Positions 3,539-59,175 of a stretch of DNA of 64,000 nucleotides are shown piece by piece. The notes beneath the pieces are model-generated. The model did not search any database and had not been told where the DNA came from. It was given only the letters and a program-made list of their open reading frames with translations. A program made the translations under genes and the position numbers. Numbering within the stretch: the stretch's first letter is position 1; each line of letters starts with the position of its first letter. The DNA is from Paraspadella gotoi (Eukaryota > Animalia > Chaetognatha): positions 15,835,473 to 15,899,472 of the forward strand of contig CM119264.1 of the NCBI GenBank assembly GCA_051294375.1. The letters are read 5' to 3'.

Positions 3539-3604
3539 CTTAGAAAATTTTATTCTGTAAAAAACAAAAGCAACATTCTCCATGACAAATTCGTCTTACA
3601 CTAC

Positions 3605-3762: not shown

Positions 3763-3920
3763 CTGAAAGAGAAGCAACTTGATAGCGTTTTTTAGGATCA
3801 CAATGGCTTTTCAACGAAGAACAACAGTTATAATTCCACTACAGTAAATACGTAGGCAAGACTTCGTTTCCTTTAGCAATTAGACTAAATACGACACCAT
3901 CTATTGAATGAAAGTACTAC

Positions 3921-4072
3921 CTCTTTTGTGAATATCTCCTTGTAGGTGAGGCGCTTCGTCTGCGAGCGGGAGAGACGCTGTGATTGCGTTTTTCATTCGG
4001 CGGGTTCGTTGAAGACGCGAATGCAGAAGGAGAGAATTCTTCGTCCGTAAATGAAGCCGTTGAATCGCGATT
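3921..4072 (-). CDS. PHTF: PHTF homologue, exon 3
   Basis: TTTTTCAAG|AAT acceptor (phase 0) and AG|GTAGTA donor (phase 2). GC-rich open frame, phase-compatible with both neighbouring exons. Confidence 0.7.
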
Positions 4073-6116: not shown

Positions 6117-6158
6117 TGTACATGTTTCGACTCTTAGTATTACGAGTCTTCATCAGCA
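6117..6158 (-). ncRNA. Minimal type I hammerhead ribozyme
   Basis: Exact reverse complement of the 7016-7057 motif. Confidence 0.88.
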
Positions 6159-6197
6159 AATGAATTCAATAGACCAAAAAATTTTGAACATTAGTTT

Positions 6198-6228
<31 letters not shown>

Positions 6229-6320
6229 TTTCCAACAAAGAATTGAGCAAGGATAGTGGTCAGATGTGAGGACAGGTGAAAGTAGGGGAAGAGAGAGCAA
6301 ATGATTTTTGAAATTGGTGA

Positions 6321-6362
<42 letters not shown>

Positions 6363-6803
6363 CACAGGGATCAATACATTAGGCAATGTACAACAGTGAA
6401 AAATTTTAGAAAAAACTAAATATTAACAAAAGTAATAATAAATTAATTGTTAGCTGATGATTGTTGGTAAGAGAAAATGAAATAGAAGAATAAGTGATGA
6501 GGGATAGATAAGTTAAAGATAAGTGAAATAGTAAGGTAAGAAAAAAGCTCAAAAATGAGCTGACCCCCCCCCAGCCGGGCAAATGTGGGACGTTAACGAT
6601 GTAGTCGGGTCATTTTTGAGCTTTTTTCTTACCTTACTATTTCACTTATCTTTAACTTATCTATCCCTCATCACTTATTCTTCTATTTTCATTTTCTCTT
6701 ACCAACAATCATCAGCTAACAATTAATTTATTATTACTTTTGTTAATATTTAGTTTTTTCTAAAATTTTTCACTGTTGTACATTGCCTAATGTATTGATC
6801 CCT

Positions 6804-6853
<50 letters not shown>

Positions 6854-6947
6854 TCACCAATTTCAAAAAATCATTTTGCTCTCTCTTTCCCTACTTTCAC
6901 CTGTCCTCACATCTGACCACTATCCTTGCTCAATTCTTTGTTGGAAA

Positions 6948-6978
<31 letters not shown>

Positions 6979-7015
6979 AAACTAATGTTCAAAATTTTGG
7001 TCTATTGAATTCATT

Positions 7016-7057
7016 TGCTGATGAAGACTCGTAATACTAAGAGTCGAAACATGTACA
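7016..7057 (+). ncRNA. Minimal type I hammerhead ribozyme
   Basis: CTGATGA-A-GACTC(loop)GAGTC-GAAACATGTA^, with palindromic ACATGT as stem III. Confidence 0.88.
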
Positions 7058-7170
7058 TTAATAAAAATAAAAAAAAAAATTGCTATTACAACGAATTTTT
7101 CGTTTCATCTCTAAACTATTTTAAATAGCAAAAGAAAGTCAAAATACAAAAATCTGCAATCAAAATTAAG

Positions 7171-17714: not shown

Positions 17715-18154
17715 TGCGGCCAATCTGAGTGAACTATTCTGTGAATTCAAGTTGAAGCCTTTTGTTTTTCTTTTGTTAGTCTGGCTAACAAAAGAGGCAC
17801 TTGCTCGCCGCACTGAATTACTTTGTAGTTATATTGTGTTACTTGTATATTACTGATTGACCCTGGCAGTATGATCAACTGATTTTTCTCCTGATGAAAT
17901 ATACTTGCTTCTACAATTATTTTTCACAATGTTTTTACTTAATATTTTCAAAGTAAGAAATACATTAAGTGATAAAGAAAAACCTTTACCTCAAATCTGA
18001 TTCAAACAACCAATCAAAAATGAAACCAATCAATTTGAAATCCAATGTGAGACTTCCCTGCGATGAACGTATGCATCTAATTAACTATCAATCATCACGT
18101 GTCAACTCTATCGACGCCTCTAATCAAACTCAGCGGCCTTCGCATGAATTACCA
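17715..18154 (+). repeat. 3' LTR of gypsy element
   Basis: Starts TGCGG after the purine run AACAGGGGG (PPT-like) and matches the 5' LTR with many single-base indels. Confidence 0.85.
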
Positions 18155-18584
18155 ATCCCTGGCCTTAAGTAGGTAATAGACTAGGTTAACCTAGTAGTTA
18201 ACTCAATAAAAGTAGGCAATTTTAATGAACGAAAGTAGCTTTAAAACAGAAATACTCAGTAGTCCTACCAAGGTCATTTCTTCTCGTCTCTCTCTCTCCT
18301 TTCCTTCTCTCTCTTTACTTTTTTAAACAAATCATTTTTCTCGTTTTTTCACTTTTTGCCACTGATGATGATGACTTAGCAATATAAGTCGAAATATTTG
18401 GAAAACCAAAATTCGGTTTTTTTTTGTAATTGTTGCTACTTTTCCCATGTATGAAAATCTATCTTATATAGATCCTGCATATTTTATTATAATTAAATTG
18501 TCAGAACGTTTTTCTCTTTTTTTTCCATATTTTTTTGACACGCTAAACGTTTCTCTGATTACGCAAAATTTCATGAAAAAAATA

Positions 18585-19222
18585 AAAAATTAATAGTACC
18601 AATAGTTAGTTAGTGTATGTCTCGAATAGATGGAAAAAAAACCTCGTTTAAAAATTCGATCGGGAAGTGGGGTAACTAAGGCTTACCAATGGCATCCTCC
18701 ACGCCAAATCGTTCTCTCAAATAATTTTTTTTATTTAATACATTTGAAAGGGAAAAAAAGAAATTCAGAATGCAGGTTGCAGAAGGGTACAGATAATGAC
18801 ATGACTGTACTACATGATAATCATGACCTTTTATGTCTTGTGAAATGGGGGCAGTAGAGAAACCTAAAAAATTCGATCATTAAGTCAGTCAATGAACCCT
18901 TTCCAATGGGCTATTCCGCGAAATTTTTTTTCTTAATTTAAACGGATGATAAGTAAAAGAATTAAATTCCTTGTATAAAGGTTGTTATATTTAAAAGAAA
19001 ATTATCAATACAAATAAACACAATGATGTCTTGCTTTGTCAAATATGTCACCAGCTATGTAATTTTTTAAAATTTTATTATGATAAACAAGCGCGTGTCA
19101 AGCTTTTTGTTTGCAGTGAAGATAATGAAAATGACAATTTTTTCACAGACAAGAAGGTAGACGTCCAGACTGTTTATATCAATCTGAAAATATTTTTGTA
19201 TTTATCATTTTTCATATTTAAA
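18585..19222. repeat. Dispersed repeat, inverted copy at about 38341-38985
   Basis: Shared blocks such as AGTCAGTCAATGAACCCTTTCCAAT occur on opposite strands. Confidence 0.8.
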
Positions 19223-21367
19223 AAAACATTTTATCAAGCTACTTCATAAATTTTGTCTTTTTTTACTTTAAATAAAAAATACAAGCAAATTTATAGAGTA
19301 GAGCAAATTTAATGGTAATCAAAATGTAATTTAGTCTTTCCTTTTTCAAATTACGAAAGAAGAAAAAAAATTTCACATGCCTTCATTGAAATTTTTAATG
19401 CAAAAAACTGTTATACTTTAACTCCGATTTAAATAAAAGCTGTGTAAAGATTTTATGAATAAAATTTAATAAAACTATTTCAGAGAGGTGTCCATGATTA
19501 GGGCTTTAATTTAATACCTCACCCACTTTCCTACCTCTTTTTTTTCCAAAGTTATTTAAGAAAATAACTTTTTTTACCGTGAGAGAACTAAGGATTTGAA
19601 CTACGCAGTACAAATCTTTGTTAAATAAAAATTTCAGCAAAGCGGGAGTATCTCAATTTATCCTATTGGTACAATACCTAATTTTAAAATAAAACTTAAA
19701 GAAAAATTTTCCGTCCTCTAGAGACATATCACTTTCAGGTTTACCCATCGTCTTACACATTTATGGATTATGCTGGAAGAAATCAGCAAAACGTTTTCTC
19801 TTTTTTTTAAATAGTTTGTACTAGGCGTCAGAAATCTAAGAAGAAACTCGAAAATTTTATTCTGACAAATTTTGCCTTTCAAGGCTGACGTTTATACTAT
19901 ATCTCGAAACCATTTGTGAATTTAAAAAACGGTTTTTGCAAGTGAATATTGATATCATCCTCCAGGGACCGGCCTATAAAATATATTAAAAAAATAACTA
20001 AATTGGCTCTCGAGTGAGGTATCTACTTTATATTATCTTTAAATATCTCTTTTCAAAATGTTAATTTTGGTAAATTTTTTCTAGCAGCGGATTTAAAATT
20101 TTTACGTGGTATACATGTACAGAGTGTCTCAAGCGTACCGTCACTTTACAAAAGAACGCTGTGTCAAATTGGTAGGGTAAATCATCAATTTGATAGAACT
20201 ACCGGAAAGATAAGTGCGTACAGTTTTTTTTGGTATCTATAATATCATGTTTATGGAGAATTGCAAGATTATTTGTTTTACTGTACTAGTCTTTAAAATT
20301 TTATATTTTATATTTAGAGAGAAAAGAATTTCTTTGTGCAACAACGACTTATTGTTAGTATACAAAAAACCCACTAAAAAGTGGGTTTTTTTAAAAATTA
20401 CTTAATTTTTTTAATATGAAACATTAAATTGTTGAAGCAAAAATTTAAATCATATAATATCTATCATTTTTACAAAGCTTAATATATAATTTAAAGATAA
20501 AAAATAACCCTAAACCTATGTTTTACATGTTTACTATCAGTATCACTTTCATTCCTGGCTTCTGTACCATTTTCCTTATATTAAATAATTTTAATCGTGA
20601 ATCGCAAATTATGTTAAGACCGACACAAAAATGATTGCTATTCTTTTGTTATTATTTAACACAAGGTCAGGGTTCTTTTAAAGCTATTTATCAGAAAAAA
20701 TTAAACTTCAATATAATTATATATTTGAATATTTGTCACACGTTAAAGAATTCGCTGAAAAGGTATCCTAACCAGGAGTAAAGTAACGAGATTAACGAAA
20801 ATGCAGGAAAATAATATATTGAGGTCAGGAAAAAATCTTAGCTTAATGAAACACCTTAATATTTTATTAACTCAAATATTGTATCCGAACATCAAAATTT
20901 ATTTTTAGCCCAAAAGACAAGTTAGTTCGTCAAAAACATGTACTAAAAATGTACTTCAAGTTTTAATGTATTAGTAATTTATATAAATGTTTATGATGCA
21001 TATTTATATCAAATTATTTTGAGTATTTAATTAATATTTTCTAATAAGATTAAGTTTATACACTTTTTTCATCACAGGTTTTATTCAGAAAATATAATAT
21101 TTATATTTATTACATTTCTGTTTACCATAAAAAATATTAATTAATTAATACTATTATTAAATATTTTCAGTATATTTTTATCAGTAATCACTTATATATA
21201 TATTTTATATTGGTTGTACCAATTTCATTAAAAAGTATAAATATTTTAAATTTGTATATTAAAAAGTATTAATATGACAGTCTGCTATCTATAATTTAAA
21301 AAACCCAAAAAACGCAATAAAACCCAAAAAAAACCAAAAAAACCCAGGTTTTTGCCAACCCAGCATA

Positions 21368-21408
21368 TAAGTCATACATGTTTCGACTTTTGTATAAGTC
21401 TTCTTCAG
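21368..21408 (-). ncRNA. Hammerhead ribozyme split by a hAT-like MITE
   Basis: CTGAAGA-A-GACTT(loop)AAGTC-GAAACATGTA^TGACTTAT. The partner strand of stem I (ATAAGCA) lies at 22041-22047, beyond the MITE. Confidence 0.82.
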
Positions 21409-22032
21409 TAGGGTGGAGTGATGAAAAGATTGAGCGATGGAACAATGTTTTTTTGCTGCCTTTGTATATGTAATAAAAAATAATTAAGCCCTTTTTCAAA
21501 AAAAAAAATGCATAACAGTATCATTAATTGAATTTTTTTTATAATAATATCCTTATAAAATCATAAAATTTCAAAATCATATTTTCTTAATTTTAAGAAC
21601 AGTTTTGGATTCGCCGGAAAAAACTGAAAAACTTTTGTAAAAAATGTTATATGATATTTTTAAGTTAAAGCTGCAAAAAATGACCAAAACGTTTCATCAT
21701 ATAATAGTTTCTACTACAAAGTATAAAAAAGTAGAGAAATTGACCTTTTTTTCCCATTTTTGATGCTGAAGACAATAAAATTTTTAATAACATTTTATAT
21801 TTTTGATCTAACTTTTTATGAAAAATCAGAATGTTTAATAAAAATTTTAAAAAATTAATTTGAAAATTTAGGATTTTATAAGAATATTACTATAAATATA
21901 TTGTAATTAATGATACTGTTCCCCAAACAATATAAGCAAAATATTTTTTGTACTCCTTAATCATACTATCTCACGTCTAAATATCCTTGTTTGATCACTC
22001 AAATAAAATTTATGTTCCCCAGTGCTCCACTA
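21409..22032 (+). mobile_element. hAT-like MITE, copy 1
   Basis: Ends TAGGGTGGAG...CTCCACTA with 8-bp TSD TTCTTCAG. Confidence 0.88.
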
Positions 22033-22311
22033 TTCTTCAGTGCTTATTAAATAATTTAATGAATTTCACTATAATATCTATATATTAGATTTAATTTATA
22101 TAAATCTTTATATAAGTATATTCTTTTATAATGTATTGGGGAGAGGGATGTTAGTGTTGTCTTCTGGAAATTGAGGGAGCATCTATACAACACAAGGTTA
22201 AAAATTACTTACTGCCCTAGATTGAAAATTCAAAATATTGAAAAGATAAAAAAAAACTTTTTTTTTATTATTATTTTATTATTCTCTATATTTCTCTCTC
22301 AATCAACTCTG

Positions 22312-22342
<31 letters not shown>

Positions 22343-22802
22343 AATTAACTCATCGCGTCAATAAATGACTAGCATCGCATCAATGAATGACTATCATCGC
22401 ATCAATGAATGACTATCATCGCATCAATGAATGATTATCATCCGATCAATGAAGTACTATCATCACATCAATGAATGATTATCATCGCATCCATCATTTG
22501 GTTATCATCGCCTCAATCCTTTGGTTATCATCGCATCAATATATGGTTATCATCGCATCAATATTTGGTTATCATCGCATCAATATTTGGTTATCATCAA
22601 AAGCAGGCTCGATCCCTATTGCTTTTAAGATTTTTAAATATGTTTTGTTTTACATTTTATCAAAACAAACAAATATCCTCTATTTTATTTTATGTCTCCT
22701 TCTCTCTCTCTCTCACTCCGTCCTCTCTTTTTATGCAATTGCGACGATCTTTATGCTTTTAAGATTTAAATGGTAATAAGCTAACTTGGTCAACTTGCAT
22801 AA

Positions 22803-23429
22803 TAGAGTGGAGCACTGGTGAACATAAATTTTATTTGAGTGATCAAACAAGGATATTTAGATGCGAGATAGTATGATTAAGGAGTACAAAAAATATTTTG
22901 CTTATATTGTTTGGGGAACAGTATCATTAATTACAATATATTTATAGTAATATTCTTATAAAATTATAAATTTTTAACATAATTTTTTTAAAAATTTTTA
23001 TTAAAGATTCTGATTCTTCACAAAAAGTTAGATCAAAAATATAAAATATGTTATTAAAAATTTTCATGTCTTCAGCGTCAAAAATGGAAAAATAAGGTTA
23101 AATTCTCTACTTTTTTATACTTTGTAGTAGAAACTATTATATGATGAAACTTTTTAATCATTTTTCGCAGCCTTAACCTAAAAATTTCATGTAACATATT
23201 TTACAAAAGTTTTTCAGTTTTTTCCGGCGAATCCAAAACTTTTTAAAATTGAGAAAATATGATTTTGAAATTTTATGATTTTATAAGGATATTACTATAA
23301 AGAAAATTCAATTAATGATACTGTTATGCAAATTTTTTTTGAAAAAGGGTTTAATTAATTTTTATTACATATACAAAGGCAGCAAAAAAATATCGTTCCA
23401 TCACTCAATCTTTTCATCACTCCACCCTA
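22803..23429 (-). mobile_element. hAT-like MITE, copy 2 (inverted)
   Basis: Ends TAGAGTGGAG...CTCCACCCTA with 8-bp TSD TTGCATAA. Reverse complement of copy 1. Confidence 0.88.
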
Positions 23430-25110
23430 TTGCATAATTTAATCAACTTGCATAATTTGGTTAACTGACATAATTTGGTTAACTGACATAATTGGGTCAA
23501 CTGACATAATTTGATCAATTAAGATAATTTGGTCAACCGGCATAATTTGGTCAACTGGCATAATTTTATCAACTGGCCTAATTTGGTCAACTGGCATAAT
23601 TTGGTCAACAGGCATAATTTGGTCAACTTTAAGAATTTGGTCAACTGGCATATTTTTGTCAATTTGCATAATTTAGTCAATCAATCAATCAATCAGAGAG
23701 AGATAGAGAGAGAGAAACTTTAAAAAATTCAAATAAATGTGTCTTTTGGGTTTCTAATTTGAACTCTTTTCCACTCCTTTATAAAGCTTTATCACATACT
23801 TTCCTACCCACACACAAAATTCAATTTCGATTTATCTATCCAATTTTTAATAAACATAATAATTATGAGTAAATTTAAGTAAAAATACTTCAAGTAAATA
23901 TGACTTTTGTTTTTTCCATTTTAACTCATTTCCACTCGCACGATTCCATCGAAACTTTATATCCAGCTCAATCACACACTTCCCTACCATCATTTAAAAT
24001 TTCAAGTCAATTGCCCTATCTACTCATGAGCAATTGGCGTTCAAATAGTGAAATATATTTTTTTGTTTTTTCCATTTAAACCAATTTCCACTCGCACGAT
24101 TCCCTCGAAACTTCATATCCATCTCAAGCACACAGTTTCCTACCCACACACAAAATTTCATACCAATCCATCCATCCAATCACGAGTAATTGGAGTTTTT
24201 TGCTAAGGTGTGACGGACGGACGGACGGACAGACAGACGGACGGACGGACATCGTTTTTTTTGCATAATTTATCATAATTCGATGTTCTGACATGATATA
24301 AGTGTGTGCCCGACAATATTGAGGGGGCGGACCGACGGACCGACAAAGTGAATTATAGAGTCGGGATCTGCTGATAAGCAGATCCGACTAAAAATAAAAG
24401 AGAAAATTTGTTTGTTTTGATAAAACGTAAACAAAACATATTTAATAACTGTCCAGACTCAATTTTAAGCACATCGATGATGAGAAGCTGTATATAAATT
24501 TTCAGCTTCATACACCCAAATTTAATCATAAAAAAGGCGATCTATAATTTGGAACACCGACGACAACAACGACGACGACGCCACTTATGCGCAAAAGCGT
24601 TACAATATCGTTACAATATCGTCGCAAACGCTAAGCGATTGCAACGATAAAAAGAGAGAAAAGTTGTTTGTTTTGATAAAATGTAAACAAAACATATTTA
24701 ATAACTGTCCTGACTCAATTTTAAGCACATCGATGATGAGAAGCTGTATATAAATTTTCAGCTTCATACATTCAAATTTAATTATAAAAAAGGCGATCTA
24801 TAATTTGAAACGCCAACGACGACGACAATGACGCGCCACTTATGAGCAATATCGTCGCAAACGCAAAGCGATTGCAACGATAAAAAATCTTTAATGTAGT
24901 TGGAAAGATTTGAATATTTTAAAATTGACAAAAAGTATTTTCGACATTGGCTTTGAGTGCTGATAAAATGTGATATAATAGTTTGATTTAAAAAATAAAG
25001 ATATCATATTAAACTGTAAGAACTTCTAGATCCAAAGAGTACAGCAAATACATTTTTTTTTTATTTGACAGTACGCTTGACACTTTGTAATTCACGATTG
25101 AGATACGCAC

Positions 25111-25288
25111 CGACGTCAATGAGTTCCGTTTTGATTCGTCCAGACCGCTTTGGTACGAGTTTGAGTCCTTTGAGGACGGACTTTTGGACTTTGGGTTCGT
25201 AGTCGGCGTTGACATCGTAAGCTCCTATCCTTGTTTGCAGCCAAGCAATAGGATCGGCGTAGCCAACGGTGTTGTCCGATGATGACAT
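25111..25288 (-). CDS. PHTF: PHTF (putative homeodomain transcription factor) homologue, coding exon 1
   Basis: Translates MSSSDNTVGYADPIAWLQTRIGAYD...KGLKLVPKRSGRIKTELIDV, matching the PHTF1/2 N-terminus as I recall it (ISWYQKKIGAYD...KGLK..PKK..HIKPDLIDV). It ends G|GTGCGT (phase 1) and joins exon 2 to give IDVDLVRGS. Confidence 0.9.
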
Positions 25289-25894
25289 TATGTTTATAGG
25301 TATCAGGAAGACTCAATCGGCAATAGCAGACAAAAGTTCGCAGTTAAACCCTAGCATAAAAACTAGTTTACGTGCTACCCTAAATTCGTTTGACCCGAAA
25401 AGTACATCGAAACGCGTCGAAAAAAGTTATGTGCTGTGTCATGATTTGCTCTTTTTCTATTTGTCTTCAAAAACTAAAAACCTAAAAAACTTACATACGA
25501 TAATAGCGTGTATTTAAATTTAGCAGTACAACCTCAACAGAGTACATGTAGTCGTAAAGTTACATTACCAAATTACGTATGCGACCAACTATTGCATGAT
25601 CAAGTACCGAAGGAAACGAAGAAAGCATTCAGTTCCAAGATACAAACCAAAACCACGCATATAAAATGAGAAGGTATCATTGTTCACAAGCCACAAAATC
25701 GCCATCGAAAAAAACCCTCAACCAAAACAAAAATAAGTGGGAAGGAAGCGCGACGGTAATAGTGAGAGAAAAAGTATTACAAATATCTAATTTAATTAGT
25801 ATGTTACTATAATATCACGAGTAAAATGACAACGCGCAAATTTCTGGCTCGTGATCGCGATGTAGTTCTCTCGATCAATCCCCATTGCAGTTCG

Positions 25895-26078
25895 TTATTG
25901 ATGAGCTGAGCTGAAGATGTATTTAACGAAGTCCTCATAGTTAACGTTTCCTTGTTGATCCTCGTGCGGTCCCACAAGATGTTCAACGTCCTCCTCTGAC
26001 ATTTTTTCGCCCAAGTTGATCAAGAGGTGGCGCAATTCGGCCGAGCTTATGGTGCCATTGGCGTCCTTGTCGAAAACC
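25895..26078 (-). CDS. Myosin essential light chain, exon 3 (terminal)
   Basis: TCTTGTAG|G acceptor, then [60 protein letters not shown] (EF-hand pair). Confidence 0.92.
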
Positions 26079-27740
26079 CTACAAGAATAATCAACATTAA
26101 GACACAGCTAAATTAACATATAATAAAACAAGTTTGAGCAAATCGGATCTGCCCACGATCATTAGCGGTACTTAATTAAACATTAATTGACAATAGTTTG
26201 GTCAACTGACATAATTTGGTCAACTGACATAATTTGGTCAACTGACATAATTTGGTCAACTGACATAATTTGGTCAACTGGCAGAATTTGGTAAATCAAT
26301 CAAAGAGATTGAGAGAGGGAAACTTTTAAAACTTCAAATAAATGTGTCTTTTGGTTTTCTAATTTAAATTACTTTCCTACCCACACACAAAATTTCATTT
26401 CAATTTATCTATCCAATTTTAAATAAATATAATAATTATGAGTAAATATAAATAAAAATACTAAGTAAATATGACTTTTATTTTTTCCATTTAAACTCAT
26501 TTCCACTCGCACGATTCCATCAAAACTTTATATCCATTTCAATCACACACTTTCCTACCCACACACAAAATTTCATTCCAATCCATACATCCAATCACGA
26601 GTAATTGGAGTTTAATGCTAAGGGGGGATGGACGGATGGACGGATATCATTTTTTTTGCATAATTTATTATAATTTGGTTCTGATATGATAATAATGATT
26701 TCGCGACAATATTTTGGGGTGGGAACGACAAAGTAAATTATAGAATCGGAATCTGCTGATAAGCAGGATCCAAACTAAAAAAATGTCCCCGTCGGTTAGT
26801 CCGTCTTTCCGTCCCCCCTTAGCATTAAATCCAATTACTTCAAGTAATATGACTTTTGTTTTTTCCATTTAAACTTCCACTCGCACGATTCCATCAAAAC
26901 TTTATATCCAGCTCTATTACACACTTTCACAAAATTTCATTCCAATCCATCCATCCAATCACGATTAATTGAAGTTTAATGAAAAGGTGGGACAAACCTT
27001 CAGACAGACGGACATTGTTTTTTTTTGCTTAATTTCTCATAATTTGATGTTCTGACATGATTTAAGTGACTGCCCGACAACCTTTTAGGGTGGGACCGAC
27101 GGACCAACAAGGTGAATTATAGAGTCGGAATCTGCGATAAGCAGATCTGAATAAAAATTAATTTATTTGATTCGAAATGTTTGTTTTTGGGTCTGACCAA
27201 GATAAAAGCATCGACGATGATGGCGACGATGAAAATAATGCCGATAAAGATTGATTTGATTAATAGACTTTTTTTCCGCAACAAATGGTGATAGAAACTT
27301 CGGAAAACCACCATTCGATTCGAAATAAAATCCTCTTTCGAATGATGTGCTATATGATTAACTTATTTACAAATTTCCAAGTTCTACGTGCGTCAGATTT
27401 ATTATGGATTTAATTGAATGTAAAACTCCGATGTAGGTGTAATTTATTACAAATTAATAAAAAACTTGTTAATAGTATAAAACAAAATATTTTTAAACTG
27501 AAGAGACATTAATGATTGTTGTATGTTTGTTAGAAATGATTTTAAATCAAACAAATTCTTTTCGTGAATATCTGAATCACGTCAATTGGTATTAGTCTCA
27601 ACTTTAATGATTTTATATTATCTTGACTCTCATTGGTCGAATTCTACCAATAGTAGTTAATGATTGAATTCTCAATAATTTTAAAGAAGATCTCTCTTCT
27701 CATTGGTCCATTAAATTTAGTTTTTGTATAAAAGAAAGGG

Positions 27741-27993
27741 TATGGCAACAGCCGGGTTGCCTGTGATGGCCATTGGGATGGGGCATCTCTCACTGTGGGC
27801 TTGGGGCCTTCCGACCCTCAGTGACGCTTCCAGTCACTGGCGCGGTTACCCTAGGACGGTCTCGCTTTGCCAACGCAGAGGAAGTCGTTAGGACTGTGGA
27901 TGGAACACTACGCCTGGGATGGTGTGTTCCCCTCTGAGCCAATGGTTTTGGCTGACGGATGGTGGACGTGAGCGGTGTGAATATACCGCCACA
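27741..27993 (-). mobile_element. Family B solo-LTR-like element (twister 27795-27874) in myosin light chain intron 2
   Basis: Reverse-complement copy of 2593-2847 with an exact 4-bp TSD (AGGG at 27737-27740 and 27994-27997). Confidence 0.78.
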
Positions 27994-29471
27994 AGGGCAA
28001 ACTTTTATTTTTTGAGAGAATTGCCCTGGGACCATAAGGTAATTGATTGATTTACTGAAATTATTAAATAGTGGAATTAGTATTAATAAATGGTTATTTT
28101 TGTAGCTTTTGAGCTTCCACAGCTCTTCCACAGCGCTTCCAATGGCTCTACTGATTGCTATTCGATTGTCCTTATAAACTGTCAACTGAATTACAACTAA
28201 CTTCAATTAATACTACTAATCGCTTACGGTTATTGATGAGTCAACAATAAGAGAAATTAATATGAAGGATGCTCAATCGTGTTCCCAAGTCCGTAAGGAA
28301 ATGTGCAATCTCTAACAATGTTAGCAGATAGAGGGATGAGTATATTTCACTGGATTCCCCCATTTCTCTTCCCATTCTCGCTCGAGACACCATTTCTTCT
28401 CCTCTTCCCGCCTCTTTTTCCTCCCTTTCCCTTCCTCCTCATCGAGCGACGACAGAAGAGCAAAGAGAGAGATTTCGTTCTGTCTTGGGTTCTACTTCAG
28501 CTCGCGAGCTCCCTCTCAGAGAATATATTTTTTTTGCCTATTTTTTGGACTTTTCCTTTGACTTTACTCAGAGAGATAGAGATAAAAATGCGTGTATGAT
28601 TGAGAGAAAGAGAAAAAAAAATCTTAAAAGCATAAGGATCGTCGCAATCGCATACGAAAAATCTGGATTGACAACAAATTTTGATACTAAAAAAAAATAA
28701 AATTTGAGAAAAGAAAATTAATTTATAAACAAAAAGAAAAAATTTATTTTGCGATTGTCAATTAAAAAAAATAATAAAGTACCGAGGAAAATTAAAGTTA
28801 CAGTTTCTGTAAAAAAAAATTATTATCAAAAAATAAACTGATCAGCAGACGCAGCCCCTGAGAAAAAAAAAAGAGAGAGAGAGAAAGAAGCCAAATCGTT
28901 TTCGGACGAATCAGCAACGGCAGCAGCAGAGGCACCCAGAAAAAGAGAAAAAAATCAAAAGGCAGCAGAGCCAGCTGCAGACGACGCCACTTATGAGCAA
29001 AAGCGTTACAATATCATCGCAAACGCTAAGCGATTGTGACGATAAATAAAGAGAAGCTGGACAGCCGCTGCAGACCGAACTCGTTTTCAGACGAATCAGA
29101 AGAAACTGCGACGAAAAATAGAAAGAGCGACATATAATTAAAAGAGAGAGAAATAGAGAAAAACTGGACAGCCGCTGCAGAGCTGAACTCGTTTATATAT
29201 ATAAAAATTTTGTAAATAAAACAAACAAATGAGTGTAGGAATAAGAAACATAACAATTTAAAAGACCTCAATGATGAGAAGCCATATATATTATATATAT
29301 ATTATATAAATTTTCAGCTTCCTTTGGTACTCGAGCTATTTTTAATGTTAAAACAACGTGACAACGACGACTACGGTCAAAAGAAGCAGAAAAAAATTAA
29401 CATCTCGCCCAAGTCTGGCATTCGCCCGTCTGGCAAGATGAAAATAGGTAAACATTATTAATTGGCAAGAC

Positions 29472-29662
29472 CTGAATCCCTCGATAAAATCTTCGGCTGT
29501 GCAGGTCTCCTTGCGTTTGGCAACAGATTGATAAAGGGGGAGAAAGTTTTGAAAAGTTATCATGGTTTGTCCGTTTTGTTTTGCCTCCAGAACCAGTTTT
29601 TGAACTTCAGACTCAGTCGGGTTAAGACCAAGAGCGCGGAGAATGTCTCCGATCTTTGACGC
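29472..29662 (-). CDS. Myosin essential light chain, exon 2
   Basis: TAG|GCG acceptor, then ASKIGDILRALGLNPTESEV...ITFQNFLPLYQSV...EDFIEGFR, typical of MYL6/Mlc-c-like chains. Phase 2 donor. Confidence 0.92.
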
Positions 29663-31403
29663 CTATATGAAACGTTGAAAAAGTCAGCACTTTCCATAGC
29701 ATGAGATAAGATCAATTTATATGAAAACAAAAAAAAATAACATACAAGGTGACACACAACCCGCCGCTAGAAAAAAATCGACATTTACAAACCTGTGAAG
29801 ATTTTTTTTTTATCAGAAAGATTTTTTCTGTAGTAAAAAACAAAATCATTTATATATCCAAATTTCATATTGATTGGTTATGATTTGACAAGTTTGAGCA
29901 AACAATGCCGGATCTGCCCACGATCATTAGCGGTAAGCAGCTGATCTGATAATTAATAAATTATTAAATTAAATAATTAATTAATTAATATTTTTTGGTA
30001 TCCAAATCGTTTTACACTTTATCTCGACTATCAATCACATAACAATCTTTTTCATAAAATTAATTAATTAATTAATTACTAATTCATTAATAATTAATGA
30101 AGCTGGAATTTACATTAAATATAAAAAAAGCATAATCAAATAGTGAAATAGATTTTTTGTTTTTTCCATTTTAACTTATTTCCACAAGCAAACAATGCCG
30201 GATCTGCCCACGATCATTAGCGGTAATTAATTAATTCAAGTTAATTAATTAATTGATAAGTAAATTATTTAATAATAATTAATTGATAAGTAAATTAATT
30301 AATTAATTTGATCCGACATGTTTGTTTTTAGATCTTTTCGTCACTACGAAAGCAACGACGATGATAATGGCGAAGAGGACAATAATGCCAATAACGATTC
30401 ATTTATTGACTTGATTGATTGATTGATTAATTGATAAATGATTTTTTTGATTGATGATTAATTAATAGATAAATTGATTGATTGTATAATTAATTGTTTG
30501 ATTAATTGGCTGAATAATTAATTAATTTATTAAATTAATTAGTACCTACTACCTACCACAGAAAGTGACAAAATTTTTAAAAAAATTTTTCTAATTCTTT
30601 CCTACCCACATACAAAATCCCAGGTCAATCAGCCCATCTACTCATGAGCAATTGGTGTTCAAATAGTGAATATATTTTTTTTGTTTTTTCCATTTAAACT
30701 CATTTCCACTTGGACGATTCCATCGAAACTTCATATCCAGCTCAATTACACACTTAGCTATCCTTACACTAAATTTTATTCAAATCCATCCATCCAATGA
30801 CGAGTAATTGGTGTTTTTTGCTAAGGTGGGACGGACGGATGGACGGACGGACATCATTTTTTTTGCATAATTTATCATAATTCGATGTTCTGACATGATA
30901 TAAGTTATTGCCCGACAATATTGAGGGGGCGGACCGACGGAATTATAGAGTCGGGATCTGCTGATAAGCAGATCCGACTAAAAAAGGCGATCTATAATTT
31001 GGAACGCCGATAACGACGACGCTACTTATGTGCAAAACCACAGCAAAATCGTCGCAAACGCAAAGCGATTGCGACGATAAAAAAACTTTTTTAATTTTGA
31101 CATTTTCTATGGTGAGTACTATATATAAATATGGGCTATGCGAAAATTGACAAACAATTTCAAGTCAATCGCCCCATACAATCATGAGTAATGAGCAAGG
31201 GGGGACGGACAGAGAAGGACTACAATTTCTTCAATTTATCATAATTCGATATTCTGAGATGATGTAGTTGACTTACCAACAAGATTGTGGGGGACAGGGG
31301 GATCCGGCTAAAAATCTTCAAAGGTTTGAAAATGACAATTTTTTTCTAGCGGCGGGTTGCGGGGCGTCACCTTGTAAGCTAAGCAGTTTGCATGAGAACC
31401 TAC

Positions 31404-35747: not shown

Positions 35748-36350
35748 TAGGGTTAGGCTTAGGAGGAAGGTACTGCGGAGGACATTAGGGATTAGGGTTG
35801 AGGCACCGGAGATGTACGGGAGGCCTGGGCCCGGTTTAGGGTTAGGGTTGGGAGAGAGGCCGCGTGGTTATATATCAAAGGCGATTAGGGTTAGGGTTGA
35901 GGTACGGAGATGTACGGGAGGCCGGGCCTGGGTTAGGGTTAGGGGAGAGGCATGGAGTTGAAGGGAGGCTTGGTTTAGGGTTGGGGGAGGGACCCATGGT
36001 TGATGCATCGAAGGGCGGTTAGGGTTAGGGTTGAGGCACGGAGATGTACGGGAGGCGGGCCTGGGTTAGGTTAGGGAAGAGGCATGGATTGAACGGGAGG
36101 CTTAGTTTAGGGTTAGTGTTGGGAAGGGGCCGTGGTGATGCATCGAAGGCGGTTAGGTTTGAGGCACGGAGTTGAACAGAGGGCTTGGTTTAGGGTTGGG
36201 GGAGGCCCGTGGTTGATGCAACAAAGGCGGTGTAGGTGTATAGGGTTGAGGCATGGAGATGTACGGGAGGCCGCAGGCCGGGTTAGGGTTAGGGGAGACA
36301 GAGCACAGAGTTGAACGGAGGTTTGTGGTTTAGGGTATGGGTTGGGAGAG
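35748..36350 (+). repeat. G-rich tandem repeat of about 130-140 bp containing TTAGGG units
   Basis: GGTTAGGGTTGAGGCACGGAGATGTACGGGAGG recurs about 4 times. Confidence 0.85.
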
Positions 36351-36708
36351 GAGCCTGTAGTGATGTTCATCCCCGTGTTAGCTGCGCTTTTCATTATATT
36401 CGCTACTTTTATCACTGGCGAGGTCACCAGTGGGGGGACTGGCGACATCGCAAAGCCCTGGCGATAAATTCGCCAGGCGATACATCGCTATTTGAATGAA
36501 CTACAACTTGGGTTATAGAGTAATATTAATTTTTTTAATTTATTCAATTTTTTAAAAAAATATGTAAATTTTTGTTTGAACAGGTGCTTAATACAAATTT
36601 CTTAACCACCTTACTGACTTTCCATGATTACAGTTACAACATTCCGATGCTGCAGCAGCAGCATTTTCAAAGCTTCTGTCACAGTCATAATTGATATAAT
36701 ATGACTAT

Positions 36709-37177
36709 AGTAGCGGTAGTATTTCATACCCCGCTACTCGTCCGAGAATCAGCAGCACCTATGGCGCCGGAGGAGCACGAGCTCCTCCCAACCCAAAGGA
36801 GTTGGGTTCGCGCCCTACTGATTCACCTAAGTAAAAGCGGGACGGGGCGTCGAACCCACCTGTAGTGACGGACTACAGCCCGATCCGACGTTCGGGACCT
36901 TGGGTGCAACGGACGGTGAACTGCTCGCGGCATCGTCTTCCACATTGGTGAGCCCACACTAACACGCTGGTACGTTAATACACCTCTGCCTGGGCATGTT
37001 AACCCACCTCTGCCCTCGACCATTGCGTGTGAAGACGGGAGCAGGAATAGGAAGGTCCTCCTAGAGTGCTCGGGCACAACGCGTGCATCATTGCCATCAC
37101 ACTTGCGCGGATGTGGGATGCCTTGGGGGGATGTGTAGTATTTCATACCCCGCTACTCGTCCGAGAATCCGCAACAC
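36709..37177 (+). mobile_element. Miniature non-coding LTR element (TRIM/LTR-retrozyme-like), family D
   Basis: 5' LTR about 36709-36944 ending CCACA, PBS TGGTGAGCCC at 36946-36955, internal region of about 189 bp, PPT GGGGGGA at 37125-37131, then TGTAGT... The segment 37135-37169 repeats 36716-36750 exactly (truncated 3' LTR). Confidence 0.8.
36824..36906 (+). ncRNA. Twister-like ribozyme, P5-type permutation (family D LTR)
   Basis: P5 CACCTAAG/CTTGGGTG, then GCGG-GA-CGG, GGCGTC and G^AA-CCC-ACC. P3 TGTAGT/ACTACA. P4 CCCGA/TCGGG closes loop TCCG-ACGT. T1 CCG/CGG and T2 AC/GT. Confidence 0.75.
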
Positions 37178-39595
37178 GGCGAAAAACAATACTTATTTGA
37201 AGGGAAGATGGGACAAAATGCAGTAATGTAAGGAAATAAAAAAAACTTTTGTCAAAAATACTAACATGATGGAAAAAATCTTAAAAGCATAAGGATCGTC
37301 GTAATTGCATGAAGAAAAATTCTGGTATTGACGACAAAATTTTGATACTAAAAAAAATCAATTTTGAAAAAAAAAAAATTTATAAACAGAAAGAAAAAGA
37401 AGAAAAGAATAATATAAAGAATAGAAAGGAAAGAAAAGAAAGAAAGAATAGAAAAAAAAATAGAAAGGAAGAAAAAATAGAAAAGGAAAGAAAGAATAGA
37501 AAGGAAAGAAAGAAAAGAAAAAAAGAATAGAAAGAAAGAAAGAATAGAAGGAAAGAAAGAATAGAAAGGAATAAGAGAAGGAATAGAAAGAATAGAAAGG
37601 AAAGAAAGAATAGAAAGAAAGAATAGGAAAAGAAAGAATAGAAAGGAAAGAAGAAAGAAAGGGAAAAAAAGAAATTAATTTATAAACAGAAGAAAAATTC
37701 TATTTTGTGATTGTCAATTTACAGTAGTTTCTGAAAAAAAAAAAAAAATCAGACTGACGAAGTGAAGTAAAGACTAAAGTGAAATAAAAACCCGATTGTA
37801 CTATAGCAAAATGATAACATGCACGAATGCGATGCCTAATTTTACGAGTTCAATCCCAATTCAATTTTTTTTTAATAAAAACACAGAAGAGAGAGAGAGA
37901 AAAGAAAGAAATCAAATGGCAGTAGCAAGAAGCAGCAGGAGAAAAGAGGAGAAAAGAGAGAGCCCCTGCAGAGCCAGCTGCAGACTCGTTTTTTTTTCCT
38001 ATGATTATGAATCAGTGAATAGGGAAAAGAGAGAGGGAGAGAGACATGTAATTAAAAGAAAAAAGAGAGAGAGAGAGAAATATGAAAATAAAAGAGAAAA
38101 TTTGTTTGTTTTGATAAAACGAAAACAAAAATCATATCTTAAGTAACTGTCCAGACTCAATTTTAAGCACCTTGATGATGAGAAGATGTATATAAATTTT
38201 CAGCTTCATAAACCCAAATTTAATCATAAAAAAGGCGATCTATAATTTGGAACGCCGACGACGATGCCGACGACAACGCCGACGACCACAACGCCGACGC
38301 CACTTATGCGCAAAAGTGTTACAATTGTCGCGGTTTGGTCTTTTTAAATATGAAAAATGATAAATACAAAAATGTTTTCAGATTGATATAAACAGTCTGG
38401 ATGTCTACCTTCTTGTCTGTGAAAATTTTTTTTTTTATTTTTCATTATATTTAACTGCAAACAAAAAGCTTGACACACTGCTTGTTTATCATAATAAAGT
38501 TTTAAAAAATTACATAGCTGGCAACATATTTGATAAAGCAAGACATTGTGTTAAATTGTATTGATAATTTTTTTTTAAATATAGCAAGGAATTTAATTCT
38601 ATTATTTATCATCCATTTTAATTAAGAAAAAATATTTCTCATAATAGCCTATTGGAAAGGGTTCATTGACTGACTTAATGATCAATTTTTTTAGATTTCT
38701 TTACTGCCCCCATTTCACAAGATATAAAAGGTCATGGTTATCATGTCAGTAAGTTCAGATTTTCTGTGCCTTTTCTGCAACCTGCATTCCGATTTTTTTC
38801 CCTTTCAAATGTATTAATTAAAAAAATTATTTGAGAGAACAATCGGCATGGGAAGAGGATAGCCGATGGTAAAATAAAAAAAACAGCTTAGTTACCCTAC
38901 TTCCCGATCAAATTTTTAAATATAGGTTTTTTTTTTATCTATTTGAGACATAACACTAACTATTGGTACTATTATTTTTTTATATTTTTTTACGGATCTG
39001 CTTATCAGCAGATCCGACTCTATAATTCACTTTGTCGGTCCGTCGGTCCGCCCCCTCAATATTGTCGCGGCACTAACTTATATCATGTCAAGACATCGAA
39101 TTATGATAAATTATGCAAAAAAATTATATCCGTCCATCCGTCCCACCTTAGCAAAAAACACCAATTACTCGTGATTGGATGGATGGATTTGAATAAAATT
39201 TTGTGTGGGTAGGGAAGTGTGTGATTGAGCTGGATATAAAGTTTCGATGGAATCGTCCGAGTGGAAATGAGTTTAAATGAAAAAAAACAAAAAACCTGTT
39301 TCACTAATCGATTATGATTTTTTTTCCATTAAATATATATGCAGGATGTATTAATAAATCAAATAAATTAATCAGTTAATTAATCAAAAGTTTTGACGGA
39401 ATTGTGCCAGTGGAAATGAGTTTAAATGGAAAAAATATAAGTCACATTTACTTTATTTTAAGGACATCGATGATGATAAGCTGTATATAAATTTATAATT
39501 AATTATTAAATATTAAAATTAATTAATTAATCGATTAATTAATTAATTTTTGTAAGCAGATCCGACATTGTTTGCTCAAACTTGTTTATTACAAT

Positions 39596-39827
39596 TGAAG
39601 AGACAGTAATTATTGATAAGTGTTAATGACAGAACCGTTCAATATAAGCAGTCCCGAGCTTCGGATCAGGCTGTAACACCATAGTTACAGGCGGGTTAAG
39701 CCACCCCGTCCCTCTTAACTGCCAGACGACCACCGGGCTAGAACCCGGACCTTTTGGGTTGGAGGCGAATGACTTCCTCCGGCACCAATGGCGCGGATGA
39801 ACGGTTGGTGGATTTTAGGCCACCATA
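39596..39827 (-). mobile_element. Family A solo-LTR-like element (twister at 39647-39722)
   Basis: Reverse-complement copy of 58944-59175 with 5-bp TSD ACAAT. P3, P4, P5 and T1 are intact. Confidence 0.8.
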
Positions 39828-51211: not shown

Positions 51212-52283
51212 AGCTTCTTTCTCTCTCTCTTCTCTCTCTTTCTCTCTTTCTGACTCTCTCTCTCTGTACGATCTCTTGCGTGATCGTTCGTTTTTTTGAA
51301 AAATTCTGGTTATTTTTTTCCTTTTTAAAACTTTTGTTTTTATTTATTACTGTAACTTTGGACCGGTCGGCCCACTTTTAGCAAATTATATCAAAAATAG
51401 GAGTCGAGAAGAGAGATATAGACAAATTAAACATTACTTTTTTGTTATTCTGATAATTTGTACTATTATTAAATGTATAAATATTTTTAGTGTATATATT
51501 AAATCATTTTTATCTTTTTTTAAACTAATAATTATTTTAGTTTTGTTAACTATTTATAAATTAATTAAATATGCAAATATAAAATTGACCTCGGTCTGGT
51601 TTCTTCCTAAAAAAAGAACAATCAAAATTTTTATTCAAGATTAAAATTTATTAAAAATGAAAAATAAAATTTTTTTTGATAAGTAAAAAAAATATTTGGA
51701 ATCAAAAAAATCATAGTCGTTAACTGAGTATTGTCAACTATATATTTTGTTAATAGGCGATTCTAATTTTATTTCTATCACGTTCAAATATTTGTTTGTG
51801 GTCTCTCTCTGTCTCTCTCTCTCTCTGTCTCTCTGTGTGTGTCTCTCTCTTATTCTCTCTCGGTCTCTCTCTGTGTGTTCTGTCTCTCTCTGTATGATCT
51901 TTTGTGTGATCGTTCGTTTTTTGAAAAATTCTGATTATTTTTTTCCTTCTAAAAACTTTTATATCGCCATTTATTATTTTATCTCAATACAAAATCCCAA
52001 AATACAATAACTTACTTAACCTAGATTTCGTGGTCGTTGCGGGGCAACAAGTAAACAAATGTCGAGGAACATGACCTAATAATGCGTTACGTGTAAAAAA
52101 AAAAATAACATGACCCAATTTCACGACGGATAACCGATATAAACGAGAGTGACCTAATAATGCGTCTCTGTTGGTGGGAAAATTCTCTCTCTCTCTCTCT
52201 TTCTCACTCTCTCCCTCTTTCTCTCTCTCTCTCTCTTCTATTTCCTTTTTTTTTACCAAAAAATTGTTATTCAGTTTTTTTTT

Positions 52284-52355
52284 GCATCAGCAGGGCGCGA
52301 ACCCGAGTCCTTTGATTGGAGGTGCTCGCGCTACCTCCGAGGCTCCCGGACGAGT
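52284..52355 (-). repeat. Fragment of family D tRNA-like head
   Basis: Reverse complement CTCGTCCG...CGGAGGTAGCGCGAGCACCTCCAATCAAAGGACTCGGGTTCGCGCCCTGCTGAT matches 36737-36822. Confidence 0.65.
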
Positions 52356-53148: not shown

Positions 53149-53887
53149 ATGAAATTGGTACAACCAATATAAAAATTATCCATTCATTTAATAAATAAGC
53201 TATCTTGCCCCTGACTTTGGACAGGCTTTGGTGGTTTAAAGCCTCCATCACTCTTACAAGATAATGACATAGCAGGTCCATGCAAGCTTTCAATCAAGAC
53301 TCTCTCACAATCTCGTTTATTCACTCCCAGAGTACCTGGCTTTTTTATCAATGAAGTGGAAAATATTTCAAAGAATGTTTCAATTGTATGAAAAGACCAC
53401 TCCCTTAAGTATTAGTAATTTTTTATACTTGCATAATTTTTTTAACTTACATAATTTTTTTAACTTGCAGCATTTTTTCGACTTTTAACTATCTAGTTAT
53501 CGAGTTTCATTAGTGAGGCAGTGAGGAAGTTGAAATGTGTGTCCATTTTCTTTGTTTCATATCGATTAAAATATTTTTTGTTTGAATTTCCATTTAATTA
53601 TGATTTACTGCAATATGCAAATTAGATTATGGTAATTTTCTTTGATAGTAAAAAAAGGCGAGATCACTATACTTTTAAGATTTTTTTTTTTCTATTTAAA
53701 CTCATTTGCACTCGCACGATTCATCGAAACTTTATATCCAACTCGGTAACACACTTCCCTACCCACACACAAAATTTCATTCCAATCCATCCATCCAATC
53801 ACGAGTAATTGGAGTTTTTTGCTAAGGTGGGACGGACAGACAGACGGGCATAATTTATTTTTGCATAATTTATCATAATTCGACATT

Positions 53888-54194
53888 TGTGGATAAGGCG
53901 CTACGTGGGCTGAAAATGACTGTCCGTAACTTCTATAACCCCCTCTAGCAGCCATGGAAAGGGTCCCTGGGCTTGGAACCAGGCTTGAGGGTTTGCCATG
54001 CCCCCAAGGCGGCTTACAGCCGTCCTCACGGCGTGAGGCTCACGCTTCCCGCAGGGTAGGTACCGGGTTGGGATTGAACCCGGTACCCAGTGGTCATGAG
54101 CTGATGGCTTTACTCAATGAGCCACCGGGTCACAACTGAAAGTGTCATGCTTCTAGGCGAGGTGAACCTAGGCATTAGGCAATGCCCGACTACA
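53888..54194 (-). mobile_element. Family C solo LTR (tRNA-Met-like head + twister-like core at about 53960-54050)
   Basis: Minus strand runs TGTAG...CCACA with 4-bp TSD CATT. A-box-like TGGCTCATTGAG, loop CTCATGA, B box GGTTCAATCCC. Core GA-GGA-CGGCTG-T^AA-GCC-GCC, P3 TTGGGGG/CCCTCAA, P4 CCTGG/CCAGG, loop TTCC-AAGC. Confidence 0.78.
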
Positions 54195-56075: not shown

Positions 56076-56977
56076 TATGGTGAACTTAAATCCACCAACC
56101 GTTCATCAGCAGCCATTGATGCAGGCTCTGGTTAAAATTTGGCATATTGTGTGCCAGATTTGGCATAATTTCAGACCGTTTAGCCAGTAAAAAAATGTTC
56201 TGGCATATAGCATACAATCTGGCATATTCAAAATGTGAAAAAAATTTTAGGTTTTTCGATCTACAGCATTGGACAGAGTATGAAAAACACTTCCTTTGGC
56301 AATGTAAATCTGTATTAAATATGTTATTTGCTTATTTTATTATTTATTTCTTTGATAACAATAACAATAAAGCCAAAGTATTTGGTTAATACCGATTTTC
56401 CTCTGAGATGCTTGTGTAGTTCAGTAATACTAGTAATAGCATGTTAAAGCAACTTTCCAAGAGCAAAATACTATGACGTCGGTTGGTTGGTCTGTTTGAA
56501 AATTACTGCTGCAAAACACCTTTTACAGGACTTGACCGGTTATATGGCTCATCGCTTAAGCATTAAGAATTAATCAATTCACAAAAAATCTCATTTTTTT
56601 GGTCTTTTTGTTTTTATCTGTCTTAATAATTTTACATAGGCTCTAATAATAATCATTTTTCTGTACTCTTGTAATAGTTTTGCATTAAATTAGCTAAAAT
56701 ATAATTTGGCATAATATTTAGCATACTAAAAAAAAAACTAACCATTTTTAGCATAATTTAGGGCGCTATCTGGCACACGTTTTTTCTGCAGAGTTTTAAC
56801 CAGAGGATGCAGGAGGTAAGTCATTCGCCTCCAAAACCAAAGGTCCGGGGTTCTAGCCCGGTGGTCGCATAGCAGTTAAGAGGGACGGGGCTCTTAACCC
56901 GCCTGTAACACAGTGTTACAGCCTGATTCGAAGCTCGGTTCAGTCACTAACTCATAGCAATTATTACCGTCTCTTAA
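56076..56977 (+). mobile_element. Family A solo-LTR-like element interrupted by a MITE (twister core 56871-56938, P5 3' arm deleted)
   Basis: The head at 56076-56125 resumes at 56814. Flanked by TSD GTAC. Confidence 0.75.
56126..56805. mobile_element. 680-bp non-autonomous DNA transposon (MITE)
   Basis: 12-bp TIR CTCTGGTTAAAA/TTTTAACCAGAG and 8-bp TSD GATGCAGG (56118-56125, 56806-56813). Confidence 0.88.
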
Positions 56978-58943: not shown

Positions 58944-59175
58944 TATGGTGGACCAAAATCCACCAACCGTTCATTAGCGGCCATTGGTGCCGGAGGCAAG
59001 TCATTCGCCTCCCAACCCAAAGGTCCGGGGTTCTAGCCCGGTAGTCGCCTAGCAGTTAAAAGGGACGGGGCGCTTAACCCGCCTGTAACATGGTGTTACA
59101 GCCTGATCCGAAGCTCAGGGACTGCTTATATTGAACTGTTCTGTCATTAACACAATAATTATCACTGTCTCTTCA
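58944..59175 (+). mobile_element. Family A solo-LTR-like element (tRNA-Gly-like head + twister)
   Basis: Termini TATGG...CTTCA with 4-bp TSD AACT. tRNA-like segment 58977-59048 has acceptor GCGGCCA/TAGTCGC, A-box-like TGGTGCCGGAGG, loop CTCCCAA and B-box-like GGTTCTAGCCC. Confidence 0.8.
59051..59126 (+). ncRNA. Twister-like ribozyme, P5 type (family A)
   Basis: P5 AGCAGTT/GACTGCT, then GG-GA-CGG-GGCGCT-T^AA-CCC-GCC. P3 TGTAAC/GTTACA. P4 CCTGA/TCAGG with loop TCCG-AAGC. Predicted cut 59075/59076. Confidence 0.8.

Follow-up and report, generated by a model that had tools for sequence, protein, structure and literature searches.

The 64-kb window, the whole stretch of DNA analyzed here, harbors a large exon of a divergent PHTF gene on the minus strand (PF12129; 9110–10234), its best database relative being 50% identical, and large inverted repeats with 93–95% identity (6060–7115 and 21406–23432) that are probably foldback or MITE-type elements. 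The PHTF exon points to an animal as host. A degenerate, frameshifted Ty3/gypsy pol remnant is located at about 13000–14470 on the plus strand, and a degenerate minisatellite rich in TTAGGG-like units occupies 36000–36360, just upstream of the element under study. The best explanation for the stretch, judged from its sequence, is a non-coding mini-LTR retroelement present in many copies, of which the element under study (36709–37177) is likely a truncated one.

Anatomy of the element and its copies

All parts of the element lie on the plus strand. The 5′ LTR comprises 236 bp and ends with CCACA (36709–36944), in agreement with an earlier note on this DNA; its ends are backed by X1 contigs with unlike flanks, and its first base is A rather than T in this copy. 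The left flank CTAT (36705–36708) is a candidate half of a 4-bp target-site duplication (TSD), the right half being gone with the 3′ LTR. A hairpin with 8-bp arms (36709–36738; pair probability 0.65–1.0) forms the 5′ end of the LTR, upstream of the promoter region described below. Behind the LTR, a single T (36945) is followed by the PBS-like TGGTGAGCCC from position 36946 (36946–36960), a candidate PBS that starts with TGG one base past the LTR and agrees at nine of its first ten nucleotides with the tRNA-Trp PBS given in Fig. S2 of PMC10886601. The interior (36945–37131) measures 187 bp rather than the previously given 189 bp or so and is indeed non-coding, as no ORF of at least 120 aa in the window overlaps the element. 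Divergent copies in X1, X4, and X6 cover it, and its folding is no more stable than that of shuffles (z +1.3). The interior ends with the polypurine tract (PPT) GGGGGGA (37125–37131), which abuts a 3′ LTR (37132–37177) that is truncated before the A box; both the PBS-like sequence and GGGGGGA had been recognized previously. Positions 37135–37177 repeat 36716–36758 with 95% identity over 43 nt, extending the 35 nt noted before, with 4 nt lost just after TGT. A complete element is calculated to measure 236 + 187 + 236 = 659 bp.

Further copies were traced in contigs of public runs that stem from a single organism (X1, X4, and X6, with X6 originating from a separate study). X1 contigs exit the element into unlike flanks, 36 of them before 36710 and 34 behind 36944, which points to many solo LTRs with identical ends. 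Summed X1 depth, which is not a copy number, amounts to 15,851–30,867 along the LTR, 1,284–3,952 along most of the interior, and 19 in the unique flank. In X6, two contigs (records 29 and 30) lead from an LTR end across PBS, interior, and PPT and reach the start of the following LTR; one is 250 nt long and shows 10 differences, the other measures 284 nt and has 23 differences as well as 13 gaps. The expectation of copies elsewhere is thus borne out for these junctions, whereas a whole two-LTR copy with TSDs is spanned by no contig of the X1, X4, and X6 runs. The right junction of the truncated 3′ LTR recurs in X4 and X6 contigs with 0–1 differences, and the truncated right end is therefore real and not an assembly error.

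A tRNA-like segment and a twister fold within the LTR

A tRNA-derived segment (36762–36818, +), predicted to act as an internal Pol III promoter, comprises an A-box-like sequence (36762–36773), a D stem (36764–36778), and a T arm (36802–36818) with the B box GGTTC; this layout of arms and boxes is one that we take from the general organization of tRNAs. The T-stem pair 36803/36817 is T-A in the 36709 copy versus C-G in 97–98% of X1 depth. The earlier reading of an A/B-box-like tRNA sequence is supported by the D stem, the T arm, GGTTC, and the compensated T stem, but not by a tRNA call, as ARAGORN (0 tRNAs) and Rfam both yielded none. Compared with the A box of Helenus elements, that of the 36709 element fits TRGC and YGG but not the fifth-position Y, and the B-box variant GGTTC is also found in the sturgeon Helenus-1_AcRu LTR (PMC10886601). 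Pol III transcription from this segment is likely as far as its sequence tells. A separate fragment of a similar LTR, consisting of the tRNA-like part only and displaying a perfect D stem, is located at 52283–52339 (−).

Downstream, the LTR continues into a P5-permuted twister fold (36824–36906, +), the helices of which pair as drawn: P5 with 8 bp (36824–36831/36899–36906), P3 with 7 bp (36860–36866/36872–36878), P4 with 5 bp (36879–36883/36892–36896), and P2 with 2 bp plus one across a bulge (36839–36840/36855–36856), together with the pseudoknots T1 (36843–36845/36885–36887, 3 bp) and T2 (36858–36859/36890–36891, 2 bp). Alignment to the Rfam Twister-P5 consensus via sister families places the predicted N^A self-cleavage site at 36852/36853 (+), and the cut position proposed earlier holds in this alignment, cleavage itself being predicted. 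We take G36841 to be the general-base and A36853 the general-acid position. Together with A36842, A36854, T36884, and A36888, these two nucleotides are invariant in all six aligned twisters of the window. The core descriptor was matched by none of 5000 dinucleotide shuffles of the LTR, the descriptor having been composed once this sequence was known.

A relaxed descriptor scan of the window resulted in seven hits, namely six twisters in four families, family 1 being that of the 36709 element, and a hit at 55567 that was dropped as low quality. Across these six twisters, 95.0% of 101 alignment cells are paired and two-sided changes occur in 7 of 18 pairs, including both pseudoknots and P2. T1, T2, and the 2-bp core of P2 are paired throughout (100%) and P4 to 95.7%. 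None of 500 shuffles, which ignore relatedness, reaches the overall paired percentage, and slid controls pair to 20–45%; P4 of family 4 is off by one column in this alignment.

Rfam does not recognize the 36709 copy. At gathering thresholds, no matches were obtained over the 64-kb window. The search for Rfam twisters suggested in the earlier note likewise returned none on this copy up to an E value of 10, neither on 36600–37300 nor on 36815–36915, and Rfam did not match a hammerhead in the window or in 36600–37300. The Twister-P5 gathering score of 37.6 bits is reached by neither the 36709 copy nor any sister; on families 3 and 4, Twister-P5 accounts for the best two of 10 matches, both sub-threshold. 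The miss is likely due mainly to the short P1, the P3 insert, and private changes of this copy. Compared with the read majority, counted position by position and not phased, the 36709 copy carries C-G instead of A-T at the P5 pair 36827/36903, G instead of the canonical T at 36852 (position −1), and C instead of A at 36889. By our own mapping, 36889 is L4 position 6, at which changes lowered cleavage. Given this C and the truncated 3′ LTR, the 36709 copy is probably weak or dead. Helices, covariation, and sister families support the P5-permuted twister proposed earlier, although an Rfam match on this copy is lacking, and we hold with high confidence that the element at 36709 is a TRIM carrying a genuine twister fold.

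Family 2, which shares 71% identity with family 1 and reaches about 40–50x its read depth, is represented by three units. A solo unit at 58944–59175 (+) contains the hairpin, tRNA-like boxes, and twister between TA…CA ends and a TSD of AACT; in the solo unit at 39596–39827 (−), the 4-bp duplication ATTG requires an offset of 1 nt, and P1 has a 1-nt insertion; a third unit (56076–56977, +; TSD GTAC) is split by a ~680-bp insertion, and one substitution breaks its P1 palindrome. No twister was matched by Rfam in a family 2 copy, merely a chance snoRNA, and a PBS is absent from the loose-end consensus of the family 2 reads. Family 3 is a solo LTR of 307 bp (53888–54194, −) with TG…CA ends, a TSD of AATG, tRNA A and B boxes, and a twister (Rfam Twister-P5: E = 1.1, 16.8 bits) with the P1 CGGCTG. 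The 4-bp duplications are exact in three of these four sister units, the fourth being the one with the offset. Family 4 (53201–53263, −) is a twister without P3 and with the P1 AGGCTT (E = 0.0076, 25.2 bits), at which neither tRNA boxes nor LTR ends are evident; a peptide encoded upstream matches neither Pfam nor the L017 peptide described below. By sequence, families 2 and 3 appear to be tRNA-plus-twister LTR-like units too, pointing at a superfamily rather than a single copy, the two-LTR form of family 2 being putative.

Twister patterns derived from these families found 0 loci in viral contigs, genome contigs, and a first metagenome scan. A looser metagenome scan resulted in 37 loci, six of which resemble real twisters (L005, L011, L016, L017, L025, and L031), whereas the remaining ones mostly fail helix checks; 36 of the 37 were parsed (L020 excluded). 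Four genome-contig loci found with a canonical pattern gave no Rfam twister match; Rfam was run on 15 of the 41 metagenome and genome-contig loci. L011 and L016 (about 1000–1050, −) are P5 twisters from the metagenomes that look bacterial and have a P2 of 3 nt. L011 (997–1057, −) scores 34.9 bits with Twister-P5, just below gathering, and has P2 (3 nt) and T1 as in family 1 and a P1 hairpin of 23 nt. A search with a model of the window twisters retrieves L011 (E about 0.009), in tests that are not fully independent of family 1, model R1 including the 36709 copy. Twisters without relation to family 1 were aligned as well, but this alignment was discarded as structurally wrong. L005, L017, L025, and L031 (assembly JAAUXV01) form a repeat family with a P5 twister of the same core just past the stop codon of a reading frame and a P1 region of 22–29 nt. 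This frame resembles the restriction-like endonuclease C terminus of non-LTR elements, which would put the twister at the 3′ end of a non-LTR element.

The palindromic P1 and a proposed replication cycle

P1 of the 36709 element is reduced to the hexamer GGCGTC (36846–36851, +), a wobble palindrome that was missed in the earlier note and that we predict to form the inter-LTR helix of a double twister. The hexamers of families 2, 3, and 4 are GGCGCT, CGGCTG, and AGGCTT; all four families thus display full wobble palindromes with CG or GC as central dinucleotide. In the scan, T1 and the cut site could be 2–30 nt apart and self-complementarity was no requirement; a random hexamer is a full wobble palindrome about 5.5% of the time. 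As families 1 and 2 are related, the palindromes are nearer to three independent cases; any 2-bp stem already gives two of the three palindrome pairs, and the palindrome is damaged in two of the three family 2 copies, both of them decayed. For family 1, a 1-bp P1 hairpin costs +4.1 kcal/mol and the self-duplex gains −6.3 kcal/mol; in all families the respective values are 4–6 and 4–8 kcal/mol, and a 2-bp stem with a 2-nt loop is impossible in these hexamers. Among the 16 possible central dinucleotides, the native one takes rank 1–3 by strength of the self-duplex. By nearest-neighbour terms only, with pseudoknots and tether cost left out, swapping strands between two local cores gives a dimer that is 8–12 kcal/mol lower in energy than two P1-free monomers.

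Because the palindrome is too short for a hairpin and pairs with a second copy, the two LTRs of one transcript would likely pair. The palindromic P1 suggests a double twister built from two LTRs, similar to minimal hammerheads, which dimerize via a palindromic stem III (PMC6765202). A 6-nt P1 was found in none of the 36 parsed metagenome loci and is, among the loci scanned, so far confined to this genome. A review mentions twister dimers as artefacts in one crystal form (PMC5408937), and no description of a dimeric twister in nature was found in the literature searched. If true, the dimeric twister would show that a ribozyme unrelated to minimal hammerheads came upon their trick a second time.

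Sequence and reads demonstrate the LTR, PBS-like sequence, interior, PPT, many solo LTRs, 4-bp duplications of sister units, covarying helices, and palindrome, and the following cycle may be proposed. Within the 5′ LTR, Pol III would initiate at the tRNA-like segment, and its transcript would extend into the 3′ LTR. Antiparallel pairing of the two P1 hexamers would then assemble cores that each consist of the 5′ half of one LTR twister and the 3′ half of the other, and this double twister would cut both LTR sites to release a monomer without terminal redundancy. The predicted cut sites lie 423 nt apart, within the 420–425 nt foreseen earlier. Held together in one core, the monomer ends, a 5′-OH and a 2′,3′-cyclic phosphate, would suit ligation by RtcB, the enzyme that circularizes animal (hammerhead) retrozyme RNAs (PMC7229834). 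The resulting circle would contain a single twister with a strained P1, slow and resistant to re-cutting. A tRNA would prime at the PBS, a helper reverse transcriptase would cross the junction and rebuild both LTRs, and Gypsy integrase would generate the 4-bp duplications. A degenerate Ty3/gypsy reverse transcriptase (13596–14339; E = 1e-4 to Ty3 RT) indicates that this helper class is present in the genome, as a candidate class that is not tied to the element. If correct, this scheme would explain how an LTR element replicates without terminal redundancy. We regard the element as a probable animal LTR-retrozyme, and the full mechanism, from Pol III transcript and double twister to a circularized 423-nt monomer and Ty3/gypsy copying, as evenly poised between right and wrong.

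A run of four T is absent in the 423 nt, which fits read-through, but was rejected as evidence: 1240 of 2000 shuffles also lack such a run, and family 3 has one before its LTR end. The monomer circle folds with 63% of nucleotides paired (z −2.3), below the over 70% quoted for retrozyme RNAs. Two LTR/interior pairings had been suggested earlier; CGTCTTC/GAAGACG reaches a probability of about 0.5 in the circular fold, whereas TGCTC/GAGCA was rejected at about 0.01.

Other readings accept the same element and circle or parts thereof. Each twister could cut as a monomer, the hexamer being a vestigial 1-bp P1 with a 4-nt loop. Monomers may indeed cut unaided since P1 is dispensable: twisters without P1 cleave at near wild-type rate (PMC5408937), and imperfections of P1 in natural twisters did not lower cleavage (PMC11662667). 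These data, as far as the sources were available, concern P1 imperfections or deletion and not a P1 tethered by a 6-nt loop, and a monomer loop has no need of the central CG or GC found in four of four families; we consider this reading rather unlikely. The twister might alternatively form 3′ ends in place of a Pol III terminator, with no circle at all. Efficient cutting at the 3′ LTR only would leave an R region of ~100 nt that stretches from the tRNA start to the cut site and permits ordinary strand transfer, the route taken by other TRIMs. This linear pathway would provide the terminal redundancy that ordinary LTR replication requires, and many Helenus LTRs display, by eye, a T-rich run after the B box, the place taken here by the twister (PMC10886601). 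The B-box arm can moreover pair over the cut site in the folded monomer and could silence the 5′ copy, but this masking helix depends on G36852, which is private to the 36709 copy. Since the two LTRs of an element arise as identical copies, a cut on one side only would presuppose some kinetic asymmetry. The swapped dimer builds both cores simultaneously, and the linear pathway appears improbable to us.

Two further readings deny the twister or the LTRs a role. A passenger twister, which came along with a captured SINE or was taken from a non-LTR element's end, would have no function in the TRIM cycle; SINE capture has been proposed by Kojima as the origin of Helenus LTRs (PMC10886601), and same-core twisters do lie just past the reading frame of the non-LTR-like family of L005, L017, L025, and L031. 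Three LTR-like families with differing flanks nevertheless keep all catalytic positions and compensate helix changes, leaving this a very slim prospect. Hardly credible is a SINE that carries a twister and happens to lie near a second, partial copy, no LTR element being involved. The 36709 copy lacks a full second LTR and family 2 looks like a SINE in size and abundance, but TG…CA ends, a PBS-like sequence one base past the LTR, a PPT abutting the next LTR, other copies with the same junctions, sister units with 4-bp TSDs, and about 50 nt conserved upstream of the A box all speak for an LTR element. The boldest form of the double-twister reading, which we put forward only tentatively and judge somewhat doubtful, is a diverse animal superfamily of tRNA-promoter LTR-retrozymes with the first natural obligate double twister; gall-wasp Helenus-2 LTRs, with an apparent hammerhead in the corresponding position, would then be a convergent case. 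Cleavage would then need two LTRs in one transcript, transcripts of solo LTRs and the monomer circle would stay uncut, and the ends would go to RtcB.

Relatives among known elements and ribozymes

An animal TRIM with a tRNA promoter is already known, namely Helenus (TRIMp3; Kojima 2024, PMC10886601), which is mobilized by Gypsy. Both are non-coding mini-LTR elements (~660 bp in the present case) that have an LTR with tRNA-like A and B boxes, a PPT, and solo LTRs; the PBS and the 4-bp TSDs of Helenus have counterparts in the PBS-like sequence of the 36709 element and in the TSDs of its sister units. The 36709 element differs in that its LTR continues into the twister fold, whereas no ribozyme is described for Helenus in the available part of that paper. 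The word "twister" has 0 occurrences in its accessible text, and a motif search of the available Helenus consensus set in its supplement, where line breaks can hide motifs, revealed no twister loop motif. The earlier statement that no tRNA-promoter plus twister TRIM had been described in animals is hence anticipated by Helenus regarding the promoter, and novelty is confined to the ribozyme. The literature searched contains no account of an LTR element with a twister; Repbase, Dfam, subscription journals, and supplements listing natural twisters could hold one.

Plant LTR retrozymes (Cervera et al. 2016, PMC4918200), the RNA of which accumulates in circular form, have one ribozyme per LTR, PBS and PPT, a 4-bp TSD, a Ty3/gypsy helper, and two cut sites that bound the monomer; the 36709 element shares the PPT and, as candidate or predicted features, the remaining ones, the 4-bp TSD being found in sister units. 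The plant elements carry type III hammerheads in plant hosts instead of a twister in an animal, with LTRs of 300–400 bp and monomers of 600–1000 nt compared with 236 bp and 423 nt, and a PBS of the tRNA-Met type instead of a Trp-like one; unlike them, the 36709 element has an internal tRNA-type promoter (PMC4918200). Metazoan non-LTR retrozymes and minimal hammerheads resemble it in the animal host, the small monomers, and a ribozyme that has a shortened palindromic stem and performs better when dimerized, as predicted for the 36709 twister, but are tandem repeats with type I hammerheads and no LTR, PBS, or PPT (PMC7229834, PMC6765202); the 36709 element has an LTR, a PPT, and a candidate PBS. 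According to reviews, LTRs, PBS, and PPT are missing from animal retrozymes (PMC7761336, PMC7229834). If true, a twister-carrying LTR in an animal TRIM would link Pol III TRIMs to retrozymes and constitute a second retrotransposon role for twisters.

With Twister-P5 (RF02684), the fold shares the permutation, the conserved GA, N^AA, L4, and two pseudoknots. Its P1 measures 6 nt in contrast to a hairpin of roughly 20 nt, its P2 comprises 3 nt plus a bulge compared with the 4 bp of the consensus, P3 is present, T2 is AC/GU, and the 36709 copy scores below any Rfam threshold. Twister variants of Schistosoma on Perere-3 likewise tie a twister with a weak P1 to a retrotransposon; there, the element is an autonomous non-LTR one, P1 is completed by the insertion site, and neither LTR, tRNA promoter, nor palindrome is part of it (PMC8501958, available text).

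Two gall-wasp sequences within the Helenus consensus set, Helenus-2_SyJa-LTR and Helenus-2_SyUm-LTR (PMC10886601, DataS1), contain by eye an apparent type III hammerhead that follows the tRNA-like B box directly. The two core boxes appear to be present, and loops I and II are complementary to each other; the hammerhead goes unremarked by the author in the available part of the paper. Judged by sequence, gall-wasp Helenus-2, which has a Trp PBS, is a possible second animal LTR-retrozyme.
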